From contig JAVYWL010000001.1 of NCBI GenBank assembly GCA_038727135.1, positions 320,001-384,000 on the forward strand: a DNA stretch of 64,000 nucleotides, given 5' to 3'. The first letter of the stretch is position 1, and each line of letters begins with the position of its first letter. The position numbers and the translations under genes were made by a program. Shown here piece after piece: positions 4,276-44,802 of the stretch. The DNA is from Candidatus Bathyarchaeia archaeon. Lineage in GTDB: Archaea; Thermoproteota; Bathyarchaeia; Bathyarchaeales; Bathycorpusculaceae. A model generated the notes under the pieces. It saw nothing but the letters and a program-made list of their open reading frames with translations, did no database searches and was not told where the DNA came from.

Positions 4276-4658
4276 CGTTTTCTCTCTCTTGTTTCAGTTA
4301 AAAAGGTCAGACTTGTGGACCAAAACGCTACAACCCACAAAACATTCAACATCGGACTTAAAATAATGTACAAAGTGTTAAGCACTACATCCATATGCAC
4401 AATAGCTAAGTGGACGAACGAATAGAAGATGGTGCTCCAAATGAAGCTTAGGATGTTGCCCAACAAAAGTATTGCCGCTTTTCTTTCCAAGGAACTTTTT
4501 AATGGTATAAGAATTAGCAGAAACAGAAAGTTAAATGTAAGCAGTGTTTGAGTTGTCTCCTCAGGTATTGGAAGGAGCCCATAAAGAGTTAGGAGGATAA
4601 AAGCCGCAATAAATGCAGAGCAGAAAATCAGTGTTTTCAAGCTCTCCAATCTCCGCAT
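4263..4658 (-). CDS. Hypothetical 4-TM membrane protein
   Basis: Hydrophobic 131-aa ORF overlapping the GT2 start. Confidence 0.7.
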   Translation of the reverse strand: MRRLESLKTLIFCSAFIAAFILLTLYGLLPIPEETTQTLLTFNFLFLLILIPLKSSLERKAAILLLGNILSFIWSTIFYSFVHLAIVHMDVVLNTLYIILSPMLNVLWVVAFWSTSLTFLTETRERKRWKT

Positions 4659-4733
4659 ATAGTTTAGATTCTGATTTAGATTTTAGTTCTAGAGGAATCT
4701 TATAGAAGTTTTTTCTCTATCAGTTTAAAAAAT

Positions 4734-5324
4734 TTACGCGAAATTCCGCTTACCAAAAATTAGCTTGTCTAGAACCAAGCTTAAGACTTGAAAAACTTCT
4801 TCAGCTGATAAGTTGTCAGTGTCTAATACCATGTGGAAGGGGGTGAAATCTTCGCCTAACTTGAAACCATAAAGCTTCTCATAAATCGCTTTTGTCTTCT
4901 CTTCCTTCTTTCTTAAGGCCTTTAATGCCTCTTTTACGGTTATTTTGTCTCTTTTCGCTACTCTTTCAGCTCTTTTTCTTGGCGATGCTTCAAGCCATAT
5001 TTTAAACCCTTTTTCTAGAAGCCACGGCATTGTCCAACTGTCTAGAACAACGTTTCCCTGTTTTGCGATCTCCAAAAGCTTCTGGTCCACAGCCTTGTCA
5101 AATTCGGGGTTTTTCTCCCGCTTTTCTAGAAATGAGAGGCCTTCCTTGCTTTCCCACCAACCGTGCCCCGCTGGCTTATAACCCCTTTCTAAAGCCAGAG
5201 CCTTTAGAGCGTCCCCGCCTGAATAGTATTTTAATCCATACTTTTCAGCCAGTTTTTTGGCTAGTGTGCTTTTTCCGCTTCCAGCCATCCCACAAACACA
5301 TATAACCAACGGTTCCTTCGCCAT
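4734..5324 (-). CDS. cmk: Archaeal cytidylate kinase
   Basis: P-loop GMAGSGKST; conserved position after eL34; start revised to ATG 5324. Confidence 0.9.
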   Translation of the reverse strand: MAKEPLVICVCGMAGSGKSTLAKKLAEKYGLKYYSGGDALKALALERGYKPAGHGWWESKEGLSFLEKREKNPEFDKAVDQKLLEIAKQGNVVLDSWTMPWLLEKGFKIWLEASPRKRAERVAKRDKITVKEALKALRKKEEKTKAIYEKLYGFKLGEDFTPFHMVLDTDNLSAEEVFQVLSLVLDKLIFGKRNFA

Positions 5325-5334
5325 ACCGAGAGCC

Positions 5335-5613
5335 TCATGCAGCACTAAGCGTTCGCACCGCTTGCTTTAGAGCCGTTTTCAAGCAGTTGTGGCAGAGGTG
5401 CCCACCATAAATCCTTGAAATGCTCCTCTTTGTCTTGTTGAGCTTTCTTATCTCGTGTGGGAGGAGACGGGGAACTCCAGACAAAGGCTTGCCGCACTTA
5501 GCACAGCCACCGCCCCTTGGAACTTCGCGTTTAAAGTGCAAGCCTGTGCGTCCTCCAGGTAAAGCCTTAAGAACACGTTTTCGACTGCGGGTGCGTTGGT
5601 ATGGTCTAGGCAT
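5335..5613 (-). CDS. rpl34e: 50S ribosomal protein eL34
   Basis: MPRP..R, PGGR, CAKCGKPL.GVP, R.YGG.LC..C. Confidence 0.95.
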   Translation of the reverse strand: MPRPYQRTRSRKRVLKALPGGRTGLHFKREVPRGGGCAKCGKPLSGVPRLLPHEIRKLNKTKRSISRIYGGHLCHNCLKTALKQAVRTLSAA

Positions 5614-5619
5614 ATCACA

Positions 5620-6084
5620 TCACTCCACACTTGAAAGGCCAAGTAAATGGGAGAATATTGTGCTGAAAAGGAAGGAACATAAAAGATACCACCAGAACAA
5701 AGACGAAAACCAAAGCAATTTAGACCCGATTCCTGGGAAATATGCAATTTCGATTCCTCCATATGTCCATCCTAAAAAATACCAGACTATCATTAATGGG
5801 ATTAAGAATAGAAATGAAACTTTCATTGATTGCCAAGACATTTTTGCCTGAATCTGGAGTATGTACTGTTGTTTTTTAATTAGTTTCTCCATCTGCTTCT
5901 TATCCCCGCTTTTGCGAGCTTCTCGCAATTGTGCGTTCCACTCGGCGATTTCTTTTCTCCAAGCTTTCGTCTTTTCTGGGTCTGTTGTGAGACGATTAGC
6001 CAAAGTTAGAAGGAACGATATTACAGCGGCAAGCATTAAAATGAAAAGCGTTGACCAAGGAGGACTTGTCGGCAGAAAAGACAT
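5620..6084 (-). CDS. DUF106 / EMC3-TMCO1 (Oxa1 superfamily) membrane protein
   Basis: TM, coiled coil, TM architecture with WYLLCS motif; conserved position downstream of secY. Confidence 0.88.
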   Translation of the reverse strand: MSFLPTSPPWSTLFILMLAAVISFLLTLANRLTTDPEKTKAWRKEIAEWNAQLREARKSGDKKQMEKLIKKQQYILQIQAKMSWQSMKVSFLFLIPLMIVWYFLGWTYGGIEIAYFPGIGSKLLWFSSLFWWYLLCSFLFSTIFSHLLGLSSVE

Positions 6085-6091
6085 GTTCTTC

Positions 6092-7501
6092 TCACTCTCC
6101 AAATATTCTTCTGAAAGCTGGGTACATTTCTGCGGCTCTCTCCCGCACCAAAATTTCGTAATACTGATAAATTATGCCGACGGAAAGCAGAATTCCTATG
6201 CCGGAGCCGAAGACTCCGAAGAAGTCGGACAAGCCAGCGATCAACCCAACTATAATTCCGCCTAAAATGGTGACTGTTGGAATGTAGCGTTTAAGAATCT
6301 GCTCGACAGCCTTTCCCGAACGCCTATAACCCGGAATCTGCATACCAGCGTCCACAAGCTGCTTCGCTACCGTTGAAGGCCCCAAGCCGCCAACCTCAAG
6401 CCAAGTAAGCGAAAAAATCACACAGAAAACTATGAGAATTGCTAAATATCCAATAGCTCTTAAAGGCTCTTGCATCACATTGGTAAGGTTGCCCGGCGAA
6501 GTTACAAAGTAAACGAGACCACCTGCTGGGACATATTGTTCTCCTTCCAGCTTATACCATCCTAACAGTCGGATCCATGGGTTATTTCTGTCCCAATTCC
6601 AAAGTAAATAGGAGAAAAAGTAAATGTTGGCAAAGAGTGCTGAGGCAAAAATTACCGGAAGGTTCGAAACATATAATAGCTTTATTGGATAACGGCTTCT
6701 GAAGCCACGATAACCCGCGTAGGAAAGAGGAAGCTCCACCCTAACGCCTTCCATGTAAATTATTACAAGGAAAGCAGCTATGGTTGCTATTAAGCCTACT
6801 ATGGATGGAAAATTCCCCCTTAGTAACAGTCCAGTTACCGGTTGCCCACGCATTATTGTTTGTGCTAAAGCAACGAATATTCCGTTACTGCCATATACGT
6901 CAGCTGGAGTTGTGTCGAAACAGTGAAGGAATATTTGTTGGGCAACACCAGCCATTATGAAGAGGCTTATTCCGCTTCCAAAGCCCCAGCCTTTTTGAAT
7001 GAGCTCGTCCAAAAGTAAAACGATAAAACCGGCGGCTAAAAGTTGTAGAAATATGATTATGGCTGTTGTGCCCGGTAAGGTGCCGTACATCCCGCTTATT
7101 ATGTATGCTGATGCTTGCACACCTGTGAGAATTATTGCTAAAACTTTGCTTGCAGTCGTGAATAAGGCTCTGTCTTCAGGCTTTGACATGTCGCATTCTA
7201 TCATGGCGGAACCCACCAAAAGCTGTAGTATAAGACCGGCGGTAACTATTGGTCCTATGCCAAGTTCCATGAGGGTTCCCCTGTTCGATGCAAAAATTAT
7301 TCTCAGAGGTGCAAATCTCTCCTCTACAGTGCTGGGAATACCATATAGGCGACATGCGTTGCTGGCCATTATTAGGTATATTATGAGGGCTATGGCTGTC
7401 CAGAAGAGTTTCTCATTAAAGCTTACTCTGCGTTCCGGAGCCTTTACTTCTGGGATGAAGCGTGCAAGAGGTTTGAACATGTTTAGGAATCTTCCAGCCA
7501 T
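6092..7501 (-). CDS. secY: Preprotein translocase SecY/Sec61alpha
   Basis: GTLMELGIGPIVTA, GSGISLFI, YPIKLLYVSNLPVI, MQIPGYR. Confidence 0.98.
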   Translation of the reverse strand: MAGRFLNMFKPLARFIPEVKAPERRVSFNEKLFWTAIALIIYLIMASNACRLYGIPSTVEERFAPLRIIFASNRGTLMELGIGPIVTAGLILQLLVGSAMIECDMSKPEDRALFTTASKVLAIILTGVQASAYIISGMYGTLPGTTAIIIFLQLLAAGFIVLLLDELIQKGWGFGSGISLFIMAGVAQQIFLHCFDTTPADVYGSNGIFVALAQTIMRGQPVTGLLLRGNFPSIVGLIATIAAFLVIIYMEGVRVELPLSYAGYRGFRSRYPIKLLYVSNLPVIFASALFANIYFFSYLLWNWDRNNPWIRLLGWYKLEGEQYVPAGGLVYFVTSPGNLTNVMQEPLRAIGYLAILIVFCVIFSLTWLEVGGLGPSTVAKQLVDAGMQIPGYRRSGKAVEQILKRYIPTVTILGGIIVGLIAGLSDFFGVFGSGIGILLSVGIIYQYYEILVRERAAEMYPAFRRIFGE

Positions 7502-7511
7502 GGACTAACAG

Positions 7512-7949
7512 CTACTCCCTTTTTTGAGATTCCACTATAACTCGTCCTCCAGCCTCTTCTATTTTTTCAGTTGCGGACTTGGAGCAGGAGGCAATCTTAA
7601 CAACTAAGGGTTGTGTCACTTTTCCAACGCCGAGGAGCTTTGTATAGCCTAAACTTTCCAAGTCTAAGAGAATTTTGCCCTCTTCGGTTTTTCCTCCATA
7701 TTTTTCAGCTATTTCTTCAAGTTCTCCAACGTTTATGACTTTTTCTTCGCGTCTAAGACTTTTAGGCGACGTGAAGCCCTTTTTCCCGAAGTATTCTGGC
7801 TCGTATTTTATAACGTATGTCCAGCCGTGCTTGTGGCGTCCGGCTCTGCGGTAGCCCTTGGAGCCTGATTTTCTATGCTGTCCTACCCTTCCATAGCCGC
7901 ATGTTCTTGAACCGCGTTTTTTGCGGATTTTCCTAAGCTTATGGGGCAT
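7512..7949 (-). CDS. rpl15: 50S ribosomal protein uL15
   Basis: RGSRTCGYGRVGQHR, FGKKGF, KLLG.G, KIEEAGG. Confidence 0.96.
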   Translation of the reverse strand: MPHKLRKIRKKRGSRTCGYGRVGQHRKSGSKGYRRAGRHKHGWTYVIKYEPEYFGKKGFTSPKSLRREEKVINVGELEEIAEKYGGKTEEGKILLDLESLGYTKLLGVGKVTQPLVVKIASCSKSATEKIEEAGGRVIVESQKRE

Positions 7950-7951
7950 TT

Positions 7952-8395
7952 TTAACCAGCAACCTTGTTTAGTGGCCTCTCTTCTGGAGCTTTCTTTAAC
8001 TGTATTTCGAGGACTCCATTCTTATATGTTATGCGGGCTGCTTCTGGAATCACAGCCTCTGGAAGATTTAAACTTTTATAAAATCTACGTCCTTGAGCCT
8101 TTGCGGTCAGGATTAGCCGCTGATTTTCAGCTTTAACTTTTATGTTCTCCTTTTTATAGCCTTTAAGCTCCGCAACAACAATTATCTTGTCTTTTTCCCT
8201 AAAGACGTCTACAAGCGGCTCTGGCTCCCTCCATTTTTTAACCTTGAAACTAAAAGTTTTCAAACCCTTATACTTATGAGAATGCTGCCTTGAAGTCTTC
8301 AAACTTTCAAGCTTGAAAACTCTATCTTCGACTTTTCCATGCCTTTTCACGGTTCTAAACCATTTTGGACGTTTCTCGCTTTTCCGCCATCTCAT
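7952..8395 (-). CDS. Hsp20/alpha-crystallin family protein with a basic N-terminus
   Basis: EPLVDV...VVAEL.G...YKNGVLEI alpha-crystallin core. Confidence 0.85.
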   Translation of the reverse strand: MRWRKSEKRPKWFRTVKRHGKVEDRVFKLESLKTSRQHSHKYKGLKTFSFKVKKWREPEPLVDVFREKDKIIVVAELKGYKKENIKVKAENQRLILTAKAQGRRFYKSLNLPEAVIPEAARITYKNGVLEIQLKKAPEERPLNKVAG

Positions 8396-39608: not shown

Positions 39609-40880
39609 TTAAATGGAGAACGGGAGAAAGTAAACCAACAAGGCGGTTGCATAAGTCGCTATGAAGGACGGAGTCACATACTTGTAAACCTTGCTCAAAG
39701 GACTTTTGAAGTAGTCAGCCGTAAAAGTAAAGCAAAGATGAGTAGGCGAAATAGTATATCCAAGATAGGCACTAATATACAAAAGCGCAGCAGTTTTCGC
39801 CGAAAAAGTTAGAACGCCTGTTAAAATCGGCACACTTATGGCTATTGCCCCGTGCGGAGAGCCTGTGAGAAAACCCAAAACCGCTGGAATTACTGTTAGC
39901 AGTATAACTGCGTCTACGCTTCCATTAGCAACAAACCGTTTGAAAACATCAGAAACTCCGGCAGCGGCAATCACGTTGCGAAGTAGAAAAGCTCCATAAA
40001 CAGCCAAAGTCACCCCATAAGTTCCCCAACCCCTAAGCGGTTTCACCAGCACTTCGAAGTTTAGACGGGAAATTACGGCTAAAACCACCACCCCCGCAAA
40101 AGTCGCTAAAAGAACATCAAACCCTAACCTAGACAAACCATAGCTCAAAGCACCTATAAAAACAGCCACAACAATAGTTACCATTATAGGGGAGAACGAG
40201 ATGATAAAACGTTTAAACTCCAAACCAGCTTCACCTTTTGCCGTTTCAAATTTTTCTTCGCTTTTTACGCTTGGAACTTTCCAGAAACCCACCAAAAAGC
40301 CAACAATAACCATAACTGTAACCGTTGGAATTTGAAGCAAAATAATGGAAAATAGGGATACCCCAGTTAAGGCAGCCGTCACTATCAGCACTTGGCTTAA
40401 CGGATAAACAGGAAAAATCGTGTGCCTAAACCACAAATTCACATAAGCCTTCCGCTCCGCCTTCAATTTCAACTTTTCAGCCTCCGAATCCACTATGGGA
40501 GCCGACATCAAAGCCCCACCGGCCACTTGAAGGAAACCTATCACAGCTGGAAGCACGCTTAAGACAATCTTTGGATTCTTAACAAGACGGCTCAAGCTCT
40601 CGCTTAATTTTGTGATTTCCCCAGTCTCCTTGTAAAGTTGGCTCAACCACATTATACCAAACGTCGTAAGAATAACCGATATCGCAAGGAGCCCCTCACA
40701 TCTTAAGGGATTAACAGTTGCATAGACTATGCTTGGGATACTCCACCAATCCAACGAAAGCAGAGCCAAAAGAACAGCCGTTGCGTTTAAGGTTATTCCC
40801 AAATTAACATGCCTATAAAGCAAAACGCCAAGGAAGCAAAAGGAAACAACCACAGATATCAACGGATCCAGCAGTCCCAA
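39609..40880 (-). CDS. DUF401-family multi-pass membrane protein (IT-superfamily-like permease)
   Basis: GGALMSAP, N.WFRH....YPL, SPTHLC..FT..YF. Confidence 0.8.
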   Translation of the reverse strand: MGLLDPLISVVVSFCFLGVLLYRHVNLGITLNATAVLLALLSLDWWSIPSIVYATVNPLRCEGLLAISVILTTFGIMWLSQLYKETGEITKLSESLSRLVKNPKIVLSVLPAVIGFLQVAGGALMSAPIVDSEAEKLKLKAERKAYVNLWFRHTIFPVYPLSQVLIVTAALTGVSLFSIILLQIPTVTVMVIVGFLVGFWKVPSVKSEEKFETAKGEAGLEFKRFIISFSPIMVTIVVAVFIGALSYGLSRLGFDVLLATFAGVVVLAVISRLNFEVLVKPLRGWGTYGVTLAVYGAFLLRNVIAAAGVSDVFKRFVANGSVDAVILLTVIPAVLGFLTGSPHGAIAISVPILTGVLTFSAKTAALLYISAYLGYTISPTHLCFTFTADYFKSPLSKVYKYVTPSFIATYATALLVYFLPFSI

Positions 40881-40968: not shown

Positions 40969-41403
40969 ATGAAAGGAAAAGCCTTCATCTCCGGACCAAT
41001 CCAAGGCATGGAAACAAAACAATCCTATAGAGAAACCATAAGACGCATCTGCATCCGCTGCGGATACGAGCCAATTGACCCATGGCAACGCGAAAAAATA
41101 ATCTACAAAGGCACAGAAAACGGCTGGTGGCAAAAAGTACCAGCAGCAGACTTCATAAAAAGGGATTTAGAAGACATAGAAAAATGCGACATCCTAATCG
41201 CCTACATGCCAAAACTCTCAGCCGGAACATGCATGGAACTCTTCTACGCAAAAATGAAAGGGAAGAAAACCATATGCATATGCAAAATCAAAAACCCAAG
41301 CCCGTGGATAACCACCCACTCAGACATAATTCTCAAGGAAATTAGACAACTCGAACAAACATTAAAAGCCACACCCTCTTGTGACAAGGTCCCAAAGGCT
41401 TAA
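40969..41403 (+). CDS. Nucleoside 2-deoxyribosyltransferase / nucleotide N-hydrolase family protein
   Basis: FISGPI, RDLEDIEKCD..IA, SAGTCMEL.YA...GK, SPW. Confidence 0.82.
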   Translation: MKGKAFISGPIQGMETKQSYRETIRRICIRCGYEPIDPWQREKIIYKGTENGWWQKVPAADFIKRDLEDIEKCDILIAYMPKLSAGTCMELFYAKMKGKKTICICKIKNPSPWITTHSDIILKEIRQLEQTLKATPSCDKVPKA

Positions 41404-42290
41404 AGCTTCAATGCAGCCCTAAGCCTAGCCGACCTAGCCCTAGGATTCTCCTTAACCTCCTCCTTAGATGGCCTAAGGGGCTTTTTCGTCAAAATTTTAA
41501 CGGCGCCCTCTTTGGCTTTCTCCCTCAGAAAATTTTTTACAATACGATCCTCCAAAGAATGAAAAGAGATAATCACAAGTCTACCTCCTTTATCCAATAC
41601 ATCAAGGGCTTGAGGCAAAGCCCTCTCTAAATTCTCCAACTCATTATTCACAGCTATCCTCAAAGCCTGAAAAGTCCTAGTGGCAAAATGAATTCGCCCC
41701 CTATGATACCATGAAGGCGTCGCTCTCTCAACAGCCATAACCAAATCCACAGTAGTCTTCAAAGGCCTAGACCGCACAATTTCTTCGGCAATCCTCCGCG
41801 CAAACCTCTCCTGCCCATAAACCCTCAAAACCCTCTCAATATCCCTCAAACTCCAAAGATTAACTATGGCTTCAGCAGTCAACGGATTTTCCGGGCTGTA
41901 CCGCATATCAAGAGGCTCATTCCGAAGAAAGGAGAACCCACGACCACTCTCCTCTAAATGCCAGCTTGACAAACCCAAATCAAACAAAACCCCAAAAACG
42001 CGTCCAAATGTATACCTCTTGACAATTTCACTCAAATTGGCAAAGCTACCGCAAACGAGAATTAGACGTCCTTCGTAATCTGTACCTTCAACCCTCCTCT
42101 TCAGCCTCTCCAAAATCAAAGGATCAGCATCCACCCCCAAAACCCTACCAGAAGGCCCCGTCCGCTCCAAAACAGCAAAAGCATGACCACCCAAACCCAC
42201 AGTGCAATCAACAAAATCCTCACCAGGCTTAGGATCAAGAAAACGAATAACCTCGTCCTTCATAACTGGCAAATGCAAACCGAACACCAC
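41400..42290 (-). CDS. rsmH: 16S rRNA m4C1402 methyltransferase RsmH (MraW), bacterial type
   Basis: HLPVM, DCTVGLGGHA, DLGLSS..L...RGFSF...PLDMR, YGQERFARRIA, ATRTFQALRIAVN.EL, ISFHSLEDRIVK, NPRARSARLR. Confidence 0.95.
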   Translation of the reverse strand: MVFGLHLPVMKDEVIRFLDPKPGEDFVDCTVGLGGHAFAVLERTGPSGRVLGVDADPLILERLKRRVEGTDYEGRLILVCGSFANLSEIVKRYTFGRVFGVLFDLGLSSWHLEESGRGFSFLRNEPLDMRYSPENPLTAEAIVNLWSLRDIERVLRVYGQERFARRIAEEIVRSRPLKTTVDLVMAVERATPSWYHRGRIHFATRTFQALRIAVNNELENLERALPQALDVLDKGGRLVIISFHSLEDRIVKNFLREKAKEGAVKILTKKPLRPSKEEVKENPRARSARLRAALKL

Positions 42291-42359
42291 AACCTCACAT
42301 AAACTTCAAAGCACACACGCATAGGTAAAAACCGCATTTCATTTTAACATTTACGAAAA

Positions 42360-42432
42360 TGCGGCCGCCGGGATTTGAACCCGGGTCGCCGGCTCGGGAG
42401 GCCGAAGTCCTACCAGGCTAGACTACGGCCGC
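42360..42432 (-). tRNA. tRNA-Gly(CCC), intronless, CCA not encoded
   Basis: Reverse complement GCGGCCG-TA-GTCTAGCCTGGTAGGAC-T-TCGGC-CTCCCGA-GCCGG-CGAC-CCGGG-TTCAAAT-CCCGG-CGGCCGC-A folds as a cloverleaf. Confidence 0.96.
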
Positions 42433-42503
42433 AACAAAACTAACCTCCTTTTGCTATTGTTGGTTTGTAAAATTAACATATAAAGCCTTTTTTGGAATTC
42501 AGG

Positions 42504-44048
42504 TTATTCCGCGTGGTGTTTTGGTTCCGCAACCTTTTCATTGGCCTTTTTTGAGAAGTAGATGGTAGTTAGGATGAAGATAGTGGTTGTCGCAGCAAAA
42601 ATGTAAATTAGACTTCTTAGGTTTTGTGTTTGGTTTTGGTACAACAAGTTTATGTAATTGAATGCACCTTGGAGTCCACCATAATCTTCTAGAAGATTAT
42701 AGAGTGTCGTATTTAATATGCTAAGCTTTTCAATAAACATGCTAACGCTTACATTGAATTCCAGAATTTTGGCATTTAATTCTAAAAGCATGGAATACGA
42801 TTCATTTAAGCCATAATACTTGTCAAGTAACTTTGAATAATCGGAGAGCAACTGATAATACCAGTCCAAAAGCTCAGAATACACTATTTTAATGGAGCAG
42901 TTACCAAAATGCTCAATGTACAAGTAGGTATTTTCCACATCGTCAACATTAAGAAAAGTTGCATTAACTTCTTCATCATTAACAAGAACTGCATGTATAC
43001 ATTTCATTAACACTTTAGGAATGGCAACCCTGCTAAAACTTGCAGAATTACTACTGATACTCGCATTAAAAAGTATAATTTTAGATTTTGTTTCAACCAA
43101 AGTTTTAAATGTAAAATCAAAAATCGTTGAATTGGATATTATGACAACATGATAAGCATTCCCATTACAATATGCAATAAATGTTCTGTACTGTCCCATT
43201 AAAGGGTAATGATCGGTATTTCCTTTAGTAATATTGTAAGGAAAATCTCCTATGCCATCTTTGTTTAGATCTTTTCCATTATAGTCGTCCCAATAATTTC
43301 CTTCTCCGTTGAAATCCCATATGTTATTCACTTGTTCAACATATGCATTGTGGTTGTTACCAATGAAATTATTCCGGTAGAAAACATTACCGTTGCTGTT
43401 TAAAAGGATGTATGTACCCCAATAATTACCAGAAAGAGTATTTTCGCATATTAAATTATTAATAGAGTAATAGTAAACATCGATTCCATCTGAGTTATCT
43501 TTTATAATGTTTCTACAAATGACATTGCTACTTGAATAAAAGAGTAAAATGCCGATGTTATTTGCTGATATTACATTTTCACATATTTGATTTCGGCTCG
43601 AAGAATCTATTTGAATTCCTATGTCATTCACTTTTATATAATTGTTACTTATAATCACGCCACTGGCGAGTCGTTCTATGTATATCCCACAACCTGCAGT
43701 TGAGCTATTCTGTATAGTAAAGCCGCTAATGTTGACGTTTGAAGCTTGTATTGAAATTACGTTTCCTAAGCTACGTCCATCGATGATTGTGTTTTCTCGG
43801 TCTTTTCCAATTAGCGTGACACTCTTGTTAATAACTATATTCTCGTAATATATACCTGAACTCACGTGAATAATATCTCCGGGACTTGCGTTGTTAATGG
43901 CTTCTTGGATATTCTTGTAAGATTCAGAAGGACCAACTTCCAAAATGGACGGGCTGGCATGTATGATCATATTGCTTCTACTAACTGCCAAGCATAAGCA
44001 CGATATTAACAGCAGAGTTAAAGGTTTTTCCATCAATTTTGCATTCAT
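42504..44048 (-). CDS. NosD/CASH right-handed beta-helix surface protein with a coiled-coil stalk and C-terminal TM anchor
   Basis: Signal peptide, IQEAINNA..GD.I.V..G.Y.E, Asn-rich GI.I..SS.N.I..N repeats, GNYWDDY.G.D...DGIGD.PY, D.YPLM; AT-rich. Confidence 0.85.
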   Translation of the reverse strand: MNAKLMEKPLTLLLISCLCLAVSRSNMIIHASPSILEVGPSESYKNIQEAINNASPGDIIHVSSGIYYENIVINKSVTLIGKDRENTIIDGRSLGNVISIQASNVNISGFTIQNSSTAGCGIYIERLASGVIISNNYIKVNDIGIQIDSSSRNQICENVISANNIGILLFYSSSNVICRNIIKDNSDGIDVYYYSINNLICENTLSGNYWGTYILLNSNGNVFYRNNFIGNNHNAYVEQVNNIWDFNGEGNYWDDYNGKDLNKDGIGDFPYNITKGNTDHYPLMGQYRTFIAYCNGNAYHVVIISNSTIFDFTFKTLVETKSKIILFNASISSNSASFSRVAIPKVLMKCIHAVLVNDEEVNATFLNVDDVENTYLYIEHFGNCSIKIVYSELLDWYYQLLSDYSKLLDKYYGLNESYSMLLELNAKILEFNVSVSMFIEKLSILNTTLYNLLEDYGGLQGAFNYINLLYQNQTQNLRSLIYIFAATTTIFILTTIYFSKKANEKVAEPKHHAE

Positions 44049-44069
44049 TTCTAATCCCCATAATAGCAT

Positions 44070-44681
44070 TTAATCGTGTGACAGTATTTTTCCGAGAGTG
44101 ATAGAGCATACAGTTGCTATTGAAAATGATCCAATAACAACAATTGGATCGATAACAGGTTGCAGTAGATTCCAAACAAGAATTACATAGGAAAGCACAA
44201 CTATAAAAGCCAGCATGTAAGCTCTTAGTTTTAAAAGTCCCGTTGGATATATTGCCATTTTATGCATGTTAAGAATTGTTTTTAGTTTTTCTTTTGCTTG
44301 TTGTATTTGTTCGTTTGTTGCGAGGGATATGTGGTTTTTGTCGCTGTCTATGAATTTTAGGCTTAGGAGAGCGTAGCGTTGTAGTTCCCATGGTTTGGTT
44401 TTTGGTAGAATTTTTATTACTCCACTTTTCTCCATTTTCTTCAATATTGTTTGGGTTTTGCGGATGAGTTGAACGTCATTTATCTTTTCTTCGCCATGTA
44501 ACCTTTTAATTAGGTCTTTGACGTTTGGAAAATGCAGTTCTAGCTGGAAGCTTGCTATGGTTTTTGATAGTTCATATTGGTACTCGCCTTCTCGTAGGCG
44601 GATGCTGGCGACTTTGTAATCTGAACTTAAGGCTTCTTGTAAAAACTGTATTTCGGTTGGTGTCAGTTTGTGTTCTGACAT
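44070..44681 (-). CDS. Membrane-anchored wHTH-like protein (two C-terminal TMs)
   Basis: RKTQTILKKMEKSGVI.ILPK.KPWELQRY helix-wing pattern followed by two hydrophobic helices. Confidence 0.65.
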   Translation of the reverse strand: MSEHKLTPTEIQFLQEALSSDYKVASIRLREGEYQYELSKTIASFQLELHFPNVKDLIKRLHGEEKINDVQLIRKTQTILKKMEKSGVIKILPKTKPWELQRYALLSLKFIDSDKNHISLATNEQIQQAKEKLKTILNMHKMAIYPTGLLKLRAYMLAFIVVLSYVILVWNLLQPVIDPIVVIGSFSIATVCSITLGKILSHD

Positions 44682-44702
44682 GTCTTTTCCCTTTTTCAAC
44701 AG

Positions 44703-44802
44703 TTTCAATTGAAATAATATAAGGTGAGCATATATAACTGTTTTTAACTTTCAAACGACTGCCTCTATAATTAGGTTTCTGTTCAATATTTTCCATGGAA
44801 AA
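44703..44802. promoter_or_regulatory. Two perfect palindromes in a divergent intergenic region
   Basis: TTTCAATTGAAA at 44703-44714 and TTTTCCATGGAAAA at 44789-44802. Confidence 0.4.

Follow-up and report, generated by a model that had tools for sequence, protein, structure and literature searches.

How does an intact gene for a bacterial decoding-centre methyltransferase come to lie in an archaeal chromosome, and what would it do there? The question is raised by rsmH (mraW) in a 64,000-nucleotide stretch, hereafter the window, of the genome of a Candidatus Bathyarchaeia archaeon of the family Bathycorpusculaceae (GenBank assembly GCA_038727135.1, contig JAVYWL010000001.1, forward-strand positions 320,001 to 384,000; G000:C1:320001-384000 in our numbering). 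An initial annotation, made from the sequence alone, had read the gene as a full-length RsmH gained by horizontal transfer and had guessed at a donor among the Patescibacteria. We propose that the window encodes an RsmH orthologue, that an ancestor of one subclade of the family received it from a donor of the Parcubacteria type, and that it methylates the equivalent of C1402 in 16S ribosomal RNA (rRNA), toward N4,2'-O-dimethylcytidine (m4Cm). Taken together, we give these claims a probability of about 0.72. The protein itself is an ordinary RsmH; what makes the case interesting is its host, its history and the context of its pathway.

The gene and its product

The product displays all the signatures of a complete RsmH. 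It matches PF01795 with 318.1 bits (cut-off 27) over residues 6-294, and the RsmH equivalog model TIGR00006 with 301.2 bits (cut-off 154.3) over profile positions 6-307 of 310. Sequence matches among solved structures are led by Thermotoga maritima MraW (PDB 1m6y, E = 2.9e-78), followed by the enzymes of Thermus thermophilus (5e-64) and E. coli (1e-58); the T. maritima protein is 48% identical, with domains neither gained nor lost. An AlphaFold2 (AF2) model that drew on an alignment of 55 sequences reaches a predicted local distance difference test (pLDDT) score of 96.5 and a predicted template-modelling (pTM) score of 0.92. Foldseek superposes this model on T. maritima TM0872 (1n2x) with a template-modelling (TM) score of 0.94 and a root-mean-square deviation (rmsd) of 1.2 Å, and on E. 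coli 3tka with a TM score of 0.88.

The residues that bind S-adenosylmethionine (SAM) are equally well retained. Our residue mapping is based on the SAM contacts of the E. coli enzyme, which we take to be G35-G36-H37, D55, F79, D101 and Q108. Their equivalents in the window protein are G34, G35 and H36 (all three in 38/38 Bathyarchaeia RsmH sequences), D54 and F83 (37/38 each) and D104 (38/38). The position of Q108 is taken by H111, a histidine shared by all aligned sequences of Patescibacteria (7/7) and Bathyarchaeia (38/38). The window gene is thus a genuine RsmH and an ordinary member of its family, and public annotation already gives the Bathyarchaeia homologues that name.

Every particular of the open reading frame initially described at 41400-42290 was upheld, except for the start codon. 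The true start is probably the TTG at 42278 instead of the GTG, because a TTG or ATG codon immediately precedes a conserved histidine in all 23 distinct loci of the archaeal core clade in which the motif was found, and because the model shows no order in residues 1-4 (pLDDT below 50).

The presumptive target site and a possible second modification

The 16S rRNA of the host reads GCACACACCGCCCGTCG at G000:C2:609-625 and is identical to that of E. coli across positions 1394-1407. The equivalent of C1402, in a numbering that we take over from E. coli, falls on C2:619. For the E. coli enzyme, the original report describes SAM-dependent N4 methylation of C1402 with the 30S subunit as substrate, whereas naked 16S rRNA and 70S ribosomes are not methylated; RsmI supplies the 2'-O-methyl group of the same nucleotide, and cells without the N4-methyl group show more non-AUG initiation and less read-through of UGA (PMC2831307).

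A search of the 94.7%-complete host genome with the RsmI model TIGR00096 returned no match. The genome does contain fibrillarin (329 bits) and, 48 kb before the window, a candidate C/D box small RNA (sRNA; Table 1). Such RNAs have a box C of RUGAUGA, a box D of CUGA and 50-70 nt from end to end, and direct methylation to the target nucleotide opposite the fifth position upstream of box D (PMC7994747). The guide of the candidate forms a perfect 9-bp duplex with 16S positions 1400-1408, the sole such match in the assembled rRNA parts, and in this duplex the C1402 equivalent lies opposite the fifth guide nucleotide before box D. By the C/D rule, the candidate would therefore select precisely this nucleotide for 2'-O-methylation. 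By our estimate, the guide motif on its own would turn up about 1.5 times in the genome by chance, and about 0.005 times in combination with a box C at the right distance.

Of 71 family genomes, 55 contain the candidate sRNA, and they include both carriers and non-carriers of rsmH. In an alignment from 30 genomes, 12 with rsmH and 18 without, both boxes are invariant (30/30) and 27 sequences keep the 9-nt guide intact. The internal C' and D' elements are degenerate, with conserved GTGAT(A/G)TGA and ATAGA, and a search of the assembled 16S (3' half) and 23S (5' part) gave no target for the D' guide. No Rfam family matches the region at E <= 1; a match to IRE_I at the locus (22.7 bits, under its cut-off) was taken as chance. 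Tables 1 and 2 of PMC11542601 record a ribose-methylated C1402 equivalent in E. coli, yeast, human, plants and one archaeon (Cm1369). Judged from sequence, 2'-O-methylcytidine (Cm) at this position would appear to be ancestral in the family.

The identity of the target site bears directly on the alternative that deserves the closest attention, namely that RsmH has been re-purposed in its archaeal host and modifies another rRNA or tRNA cytidine, or DNA, instead of the C1402 equivalent. The proteins and assembly factors of the archaeal 30S subunit differ from the bacterial ones, and the original docking of RsmH may fail on them. The C1402 equivalent is, moreover, apparently already targeted by the native C/D sRNA, so that a second modification is not obviously needed, and wider roles of MraW that include DNA methylation are reported for E. 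coli O157:H7 in a preprint (10.1101/480244). Against this, the protein has stayed a conservative full-length RsmH by identity and backbone fit to T. maritima MraW, and its presumptive target sequence is unchanged. Mitochondrial METTL15 (per the titles of its PDB entries) and, reportedly, plastid CMAL likewise keep the target despite very different ribosomes. We consider re-purposing unlikely, and retain N4 methylation of the C1402 equivalent as the preferred function.

Affinity to Patescibacteria

A scan of genome collections returned 27 archaeal loci with 73-99% identity, followed by 53 bacterial loci at 48-60%. By their titles, 45 of the latter belong to Patescibacteria lineages, 7 are only called 'bacterium' and 1 is Omnitrophota. 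An index-free phmmer search over 1.84 billion cluster representatives gave 21,700 RsmH matches, the best with 389 and 363 bits. The 363-bit match, Candidatus Gribaldobacteria at 63% identity, is the highest that carries a name; on the same scale, T. maritima RsmH scores 266 bits and E. coli RsmH 202 bits. Seven of the 30 representatives looked up carry a taxon, and these comprise six members of the Candidate Phyla Radiation (CPR; Gribaldobacteria twice, Paceibacterota, Yanofskybacteria, Microgenomates and Pacebacteria) and one deltaproteobacterium. A feature-based search of a language-model Atlas placed the query in a Bathyarchaeota cluster of its own, with two Minisyncoccota clusters next.

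The phylogenetic trees point in the same direction. With FastTree (217 rows), the 23 archaeal rows form one clade (support 98) within a 77-row clade (98) that also holds the named Parcubacteria-type loci. With IQ-TREE under a site-heterogeneous model (62 rows), the core clade and the copy of another family genome, G195, group at 99/97. Around this archaeal group lie, in succession, a Parcubacteria-type group of 38 rows (84/97), a group of 47 rows (94/91) and one of 50 rows with Microgenomates among its members (93/89). The six named non-CPR bacteria fall outside. Named members of the group that contains the archaea are Nealson-, Wildermuth-, Staskawicz-, Gribaldo- and Yanofskybacteria and Paceibacterota. 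A tree constrained to place the archaeal rows outside the cluster of 45 bacterial rows is worse by 124 log-likelihood units and is rejected by the approximately unbiased (AU) test (p-AU 3.8e-5). A further AU test, in which the 28 taxon-named Patescibacteria rows were held as a clade, was rejected at p = 2.4e-9; we discarded it as evidence, because unnamed or differently labelled rows interleave with the named Patescibacteria. The nesting of the archaeal copies within bacteria agrees with the transfer that had been proposed at the outset, and the names of the nearest loci, representatives and Atlas clusters uphold the guess of a patescibacterial or parcubacterial donor.

One may ask whether this affinity is an artefact of composition or sampling, with the true donor elsewhere, for instance in a thermophile. 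The best match among solved structures is indeed the thermophile T. maritima, the backbone supports in the bacterial cluster are moderate (84-94), most of 150 representatives carry no taxon name, and the close rows include the Omnitrophota locus and the seven plain 'bacterium' titles. Yet every named sequence that scores above the 266 bits of T. maritima is CPR, and the archaeal clade stays within the named Parcubacteria-type group under the site-heterogeneous model. The Atlas search, a second method, has Minisyncoccota next, and named RsmH proteins of Bacillota, Actinomycetota and Pseudomonadota are just 37-43% identical. A non-patescibacterial donor thus seems to us decidedly improbable, and a Parcubacteria-type donor remains the preferred source.

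Distribution among archaea

RsmH was detected in 10/10 control bacteria and in 0/4 control archaea. Close to the host, it occurs in 12 of 13 other genomes of the same genus and in 15 of 24 other genomes of the same family; in a sample with one genome per genus, 13 of the 70 genera of the family have it. Beyond the family it disappears. None of 16 genomes from eleven other families of the order contains it, TIGR00006 exceeds its cut-off in 6 of 301 genomes of the class sample, every one in the host family, and the phylum sample of Thermoproteota yields 3 of 401, all from one family. Weak TIGR00006 matches in family f35 (20-28 bits, confined to positions 14-84 of the profile) belong to other methyltransferases and were left uncounted. 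The best 120 matches in a collection of 5.8 billion proteins are all at least 72% identical to the query, and the named organisms among them are all Bathyarchaeia/Bathyarchaeota or 'Nitrososphaerota' archaea.

The gene is therefore a stable trait of one subclade, absent from the surrounding samples. This agrees with the starting assumption that RsmH is not a normal archaeal gene, and with the paper that identified the enzyme, which states that archaea had so far yielded neither rsmH nor rsmI (PMC2831307). The initial annotation had named wide occurrence with vertical inheritance in this lineage as a point that would speak against transfer; vertical inheritance is what we see within the subclade, but elsewhere in the samples of order, class and phylum the gene is absent. 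Searches of the open-access literature returned no paper on RsmH in Bathyarchaeia or in any archaeon, including when they were directed at transfer between Bathyarchaeia and Patescibacteria or at N4-methylcytidine in archaeal 16S rRNA.

An ancestral archaeal rsmH that was lost elsewhere, or passed in reverse to Patescibacteria, would fit the stable inheritance of the gene in the subclade and its host-like composition. It is very hard to reconcile with the remaining observations: RsmH is near-universal in bacteria (all ten controls and the 21,700 representative clusters), Patescibacteria keep rsmH in its canonical division and cell wall (dcw) context, the gene is absent from 398/401 Thermoproteota and from 57/70 genera of the family, and the archaeal sequences form a shallow clade nested in bacterial diversity. 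Transfer from Patescibacteria to the archaea is the direction that we adopt.

Host genome and integrity of the assembly

The source is a metagenome-assembled genome (MAG) of 1.55 Mb in 7 contigs, with 2.3% contamination. It holds archaeal 16S and 23S rRNA fragments (the 3' half of the 16S only and the 5' part of the 23S only), and the flanks of the window are archaeal as initially described, with a helicase carrying an archaeal domain 4, PurL and HypF. The nearest public contigs are titled Candidatus Bathyarchaeia MAGs, and nine hot-springs metagenome runs from three studies contain 63-78% of the sampled words of the stretch. The order of rsmH, a convergent gene similar to nucleoside 2-deoxyribosyltransferase (NDT) and a DUF401 gene recurs in most of 37 Bathyarchaeia loci at 65-100% protein identity, and again in family genomes.

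A bacterial fragment misjoined to the archaeal contig during assembly or binning, to which we give practically no credence, could draw on the MAG origin and on the listed short contigs that end at the transfer RNA (tRNA) gene, but rsmH lies 361 kb inside an 820-kb contig, its gene order is identical in more than 20 independent assemblies, its junction with the NDT-like gene (41400-41403) is bridged by contigs from three runs of three studies, and its GC content (46.2%) and GC content at third codon positions (GC3, 44.9%) match those of the surroundings, as had been noted from the start (44.8% for contig C1). A chimeric assembly, which the initial annotation had allowed for, is excluded for rsmH. 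None of the short contigs listed spans the tRNA itself, where the summed depth jumps to 4,500-8,200 because many organisms have this tRNA in common; since the contigs break there, the linkage of rsmH to the tRNA rests on MAG assemblies.

As a separate observation, one public MAG holds two rsmH loci on separate contigs, L010 and L018, with proteins 99% and 82% identical to that of the window and full synteny at each. This MAG probably mixes two species of the genus.

History within the family

The transfer of rsmH is old, not recent, because the gene is vertically inherited in the subclade, with 12 of 13 genus relatives carrying it in conserved synteny. Of 27 pairs computed against the window gene, 9 have an unsaturated dS; in these, within the genus, the ratio of nonsynonymous to synonymous substitution rates (dN/dS) is 0.065-0.184. 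A tree of the single gene PurL, built from 30 family genomes out of 65 that gave a match, contains a clade of 11 with 99% support, 10 of which carry rsmH. The gene also occurs in three genomes outside this clade (G195, G684 and G324), and the rsmH label therefore needs at least 4-5 changes on the PurL tree. Its history in the family may be one of early gain with losses, or of later spread within the family.

The three outliers differ in their setting. The G195 copy (L175:6225-7217) sits exactly between genes that are adjacent in the genome of the window, the G684 copy (L174:6256-7143) adjoins a block from yet another region, and the G324 copy is only a fragment at a contig end. The G195 and G684 copies are 62-64% identical to the core clade, about as close as to Patescibacteria, and the G684 copy falls outside the group of core clade and G195 in IQ-TREE. 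With all 11 Bathyarchaeia rows including G684 held as one clade, the AU test gives p = 0.087, so a single origin is not rejected. Relocation, spread within the family or a second entry are possible explanations for these two copies.

Neighbourhood and insertion site

The positions of the features discussed are collected in Table 1. As initially described, no mraZ/ftsL context was found around the window rsmH, whose neighbours are the NDT-like gene, the DUF401 gene and a NosD-like gene. Two Pfam matches to MraZ elsewhere in the genome (23.6 and 21 bits, on other contigs) are borderline and were taken as AbrB-like domains unrelated to rsmH.

Table 1. Features in and near the window; positions refer to the window unless a contig or locus is given.
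Feature	Position	Strand	Details
rsmH coding sequence	41400..42290	-	296 aa from GTG 42290; likelier 292 aa from TTG 42278
Candidate archaeal TATA box of rsmH, TTAAAAT	42341..42347	-	about 63 nt upstream of TTG, between tRNA and rsmH
tRNA-Gly(CCC)	42359..42433	-	ARAGORN; Rfam RF00005 64.3 bits; directly upstream of rsmH
TTTATAT box of tRNA-Gly(CCC)	42478-42484	-	read from sequence
NDT-like gene	40969..41403	+	PF05014 39.9 bits; native; convergent with rsmH, 4-nt overlap
DUF401/TIGR00529-like membrane protein, native	39609..40880	-	PF04165 116.8 bits; in conserved block beside rsmH
Low-GC island: NosD-like beta-helix protein and 212-aa membrane ORF	42504..44708	-	beyond tRNA
Candidate C/D box sRNA, 64 nt	G000:C1:272155-272218 (= L176:256-319)		48 kb before window; box C ATGATGA, box D CTGA

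The 3' end of the tRNA gene lies 68 nt from the GTG of rsmH, in line with the estimate of about 70 bp made at first. Between them, an A/T-rich box similar to TTAAAAT occurs at the same distance from rsmH in 8 of 9 genus-level upstream regions (the window, L007, L008, L011, L012, L015, L016 and L033), and the ninth, L020, has CTAAAAA at this position. At genus level the distance of the box to rsmH is constant whatever the spacing of the tRNA. Remoter relatives display other TATA-like boxes, as well as Shine-Dalgarno-like runs 5' of the TTG or ATG. This conservation suggests that rsmH has its own archaeal promoter.

In core-clade genomes, rsmH is flanked by the NDT-like gene and by a tRNA gene that points the other way from it. 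The identity of this tRNA varies among the window and L004, L007, L011, L014, L018, L030, L032 and L033, and may be Gly-CCC, Gly-GCC, Gly-TCC, Glu-CTC or an intron-bearing form; the insertion site is therefore a breakpoint at tRNA genes. In family genomes without rsmH, the DUF401 gene and the NDT-like gene are followed within about 90-180 nt by tRNA-Gly(GCC), in the opposite relative orientation, and synteny with the window stops there. The variation in tRNA identity and orientation suggests rearrangement by recombination at tRNA genes. On the other side, the DUF401 gene is syntenic in most Bathyarchaeia loci and the NDT-like gene occurs in 41 of 71 family genomes irrespective of rsmH; the NDT-like gene is the conserved downstream boundary of the insertion.

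Beyond the tRNA, the two genes of the island have a GC content of 33.6% and 36.6%, compared with 44.8% for contig C1, and the NosD-like protein begins with an N-terminal hydrophobic stretch. The island is present in the genus relatives L010, L012 and L020 and missing in L007, L008, L015 and L016, and word depth over 42504-44708 is uneven between runs. Adjoining the tRNA, it probably is an island of surface proteins that varies between strains. It is separate from the acquisition of rsmH and marks a variable upstream boundary.

With regard to the NDT-like gene itself, the protein match crosses a stop codon near the C-terminus in eight relatives (L103, L108, L111, L114, L118, L119, L122 and L130). 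The 4-nt overlap with rsmH is therefore not general, and the 144-aa form of the window may exceed the conserved core of about 133-138 aa.

Proposed course of events and its strength

According to our proposal, an ancestor of this hot-spring subclade of Bathyarchaeia would have gained rsmH by horizontal transfer from Parcubacteria-type Patescibacteria, keeping only rsmH from a donor cluster of mraZ-rsmH-ftsL-ftsI. The gene would have landed beside a tRNA gene at a rearrangement-prone site, come under an archaeal-type promoter, taken on the composition of the host and thereafter been vertically inherited under purifying selection. Its product is predicted to bind SAM and to add a methyl group to N4 of the C1402 equivalent, a P-site nucleotide at the top of helix 44. 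By analogy with bacterial RsmH, the substrate would be late or assembled 30S subunits. The 2'-O-methyl group of the same nucleotide would probably come from the C/D box sRNA and fibrillarin, and the product in RsmH-bearing lineages would be a bacterial-type m4Cm made by machinery of two origins.

Several points weigh against this picture. Bacterial RsmH recognises the surface of the bacterial 30S subunit, and its docking on archaeal ribosomal proteins is putative. The one RNA library with any words of the stretch, X19 (share 0.06), covers the NDT-like gene and the tRNA in short pieces and rsmH not at all, which is uninformative either way. The genome-collection scan was seeded with the query's own peptides, which biases it toward near relatives; the 'Saccharibacteria' names of some loci are automated MAG labels that may be loose, and one of the nearest rows is Omnitrophota. 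The grouping behind the p-AU of 3.8e-5 was chosen after inspection of the tree. Branch order within the Patescibacteria group is poorly supported, and the donor class therefore cannot be named. Archaea beyond the Thermoproteota are represented by the four control genomes only. Finally, the divergent G195 and G684 copies at other loci indicate a history of more than one simple event.

A more specific version, which we put forward tentatively and would not yet favour, joins the native sRNA and fibrillarin with the Patescibacteria-derived RsmH in a hybrid route to m4Cm, with rsmH perhaps entering the family more than once. RsmI would then be unnecessary, since the 2'-O-methyl group would be supplied by the sRNA and fibrillarin, and the divergent rsmH copies at three loci would indicate that Patescibacteria living in contact with these archaea have passed genes to them repeatedly. 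At least one cultured member of the Patescibacteria is reported to be a parasite of an archaeon (PMC12281837), and a 2026 preprint reports, by its title, recurrent transfer of RuBisCO between archaea and Patescibacteriota (10.64898/2026.05.13.725050).

Genes of the decoding centre are thought rarely to cross between domains. Here, a bacterial methyltransferase of the decoding centre is fixed in archaea and has stayed conserved while at least a dozen genera of one family diverged. If RsmH works on the archaeal 30S subunit, a P-site modification can be moved between domains; if the two-origin scheme is true, it offers a natural system in which the N4-methyl and 2'-O-methyl groups of one nucleotide come from machineries of different origin. 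The gene would also serve as a marker by which contact between Patescibacteria and Bathyarchaeia in hot springs could be followed.

Comparison with known systems

The archaeal protein resembles bacterial RsmH/MraW of known structure (E. coli 3TKA, T. maritima TM0872 1M6Y/1N2X, T. thermophilus TT1512 1WG8) in family models, two-domain fold (TM 0.88-0.94), SAM contacts and presumptive 16S target sequence. In length it belongs with the compact forms of T. maritima and Patescibacteria, without the C-terminal insertions of the E. coli enzyme. It is unlike the bacterial systems in its archaeal host, its archaeal-type upstream region, the lack of mraZ/ftsL/ftsI neighbours, and RsmI, which was not found in the host genome. 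The nearest relatives are those of Patescibacteria (Gribaldobacteria PJA02423.1 = P0122, Nealsonbacteria locus L034), with 57-63% identity and up to 363-389 bits, and with the same compact architecture and DLG(L/M)SSWHLE motif. In Patescibacteria, however, rsmH stands in the order mraZ-rsmH-small ORF-penicillin-binding protein (4/4 loci examined), in contrast to the solitary archaeal copies.

For the companion sRNA, the closest counterparts are C/D guides to the C1402 equivalent elsewhere. They include a U43-type snoRNA in plants, and their sites are Cm1703 in human, Cm1639 in yeast and Cm1369 in an archaeon, whose equivalence is tabulated in PMC11542601. The candidate shares with these guides the C and D boxes and the placement of the C1402 equivalent at the fifth position, and differs in its degenerate C' and D' boxes and in matching no Rfam family.

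Cytidine N4-methylation of archaeal 16S rRNA on assembled ribosomes, tied to growth at high temperature, is described for TK2045 of Thermococcus kodakarensis (PMC11551388). Unlike RsmH, TK2045 is a native archaeal enzyme, acts on C918 in helix 31 and makes the dimethyl product N4,N4-dimethylcytidine (m4,2C); according to the same paper, no other bona fide m4,2C synthase is known, and RsmH figures there as a distinct enzyme.

Precedents for RsmH on ribosomes other than those of the bacterial cytosol are METTL15 in mitochondria and, reportedly, CMAL in plastids, which act on the equivalent nucleotide and match the archaeal model with TM scores of 0.83-0.90. Both came with endosymbionts and work on organelle ribosomes of bacterial type, whereas the ribosome that RsmH meets in these Bathyarchaeia is archaeal.

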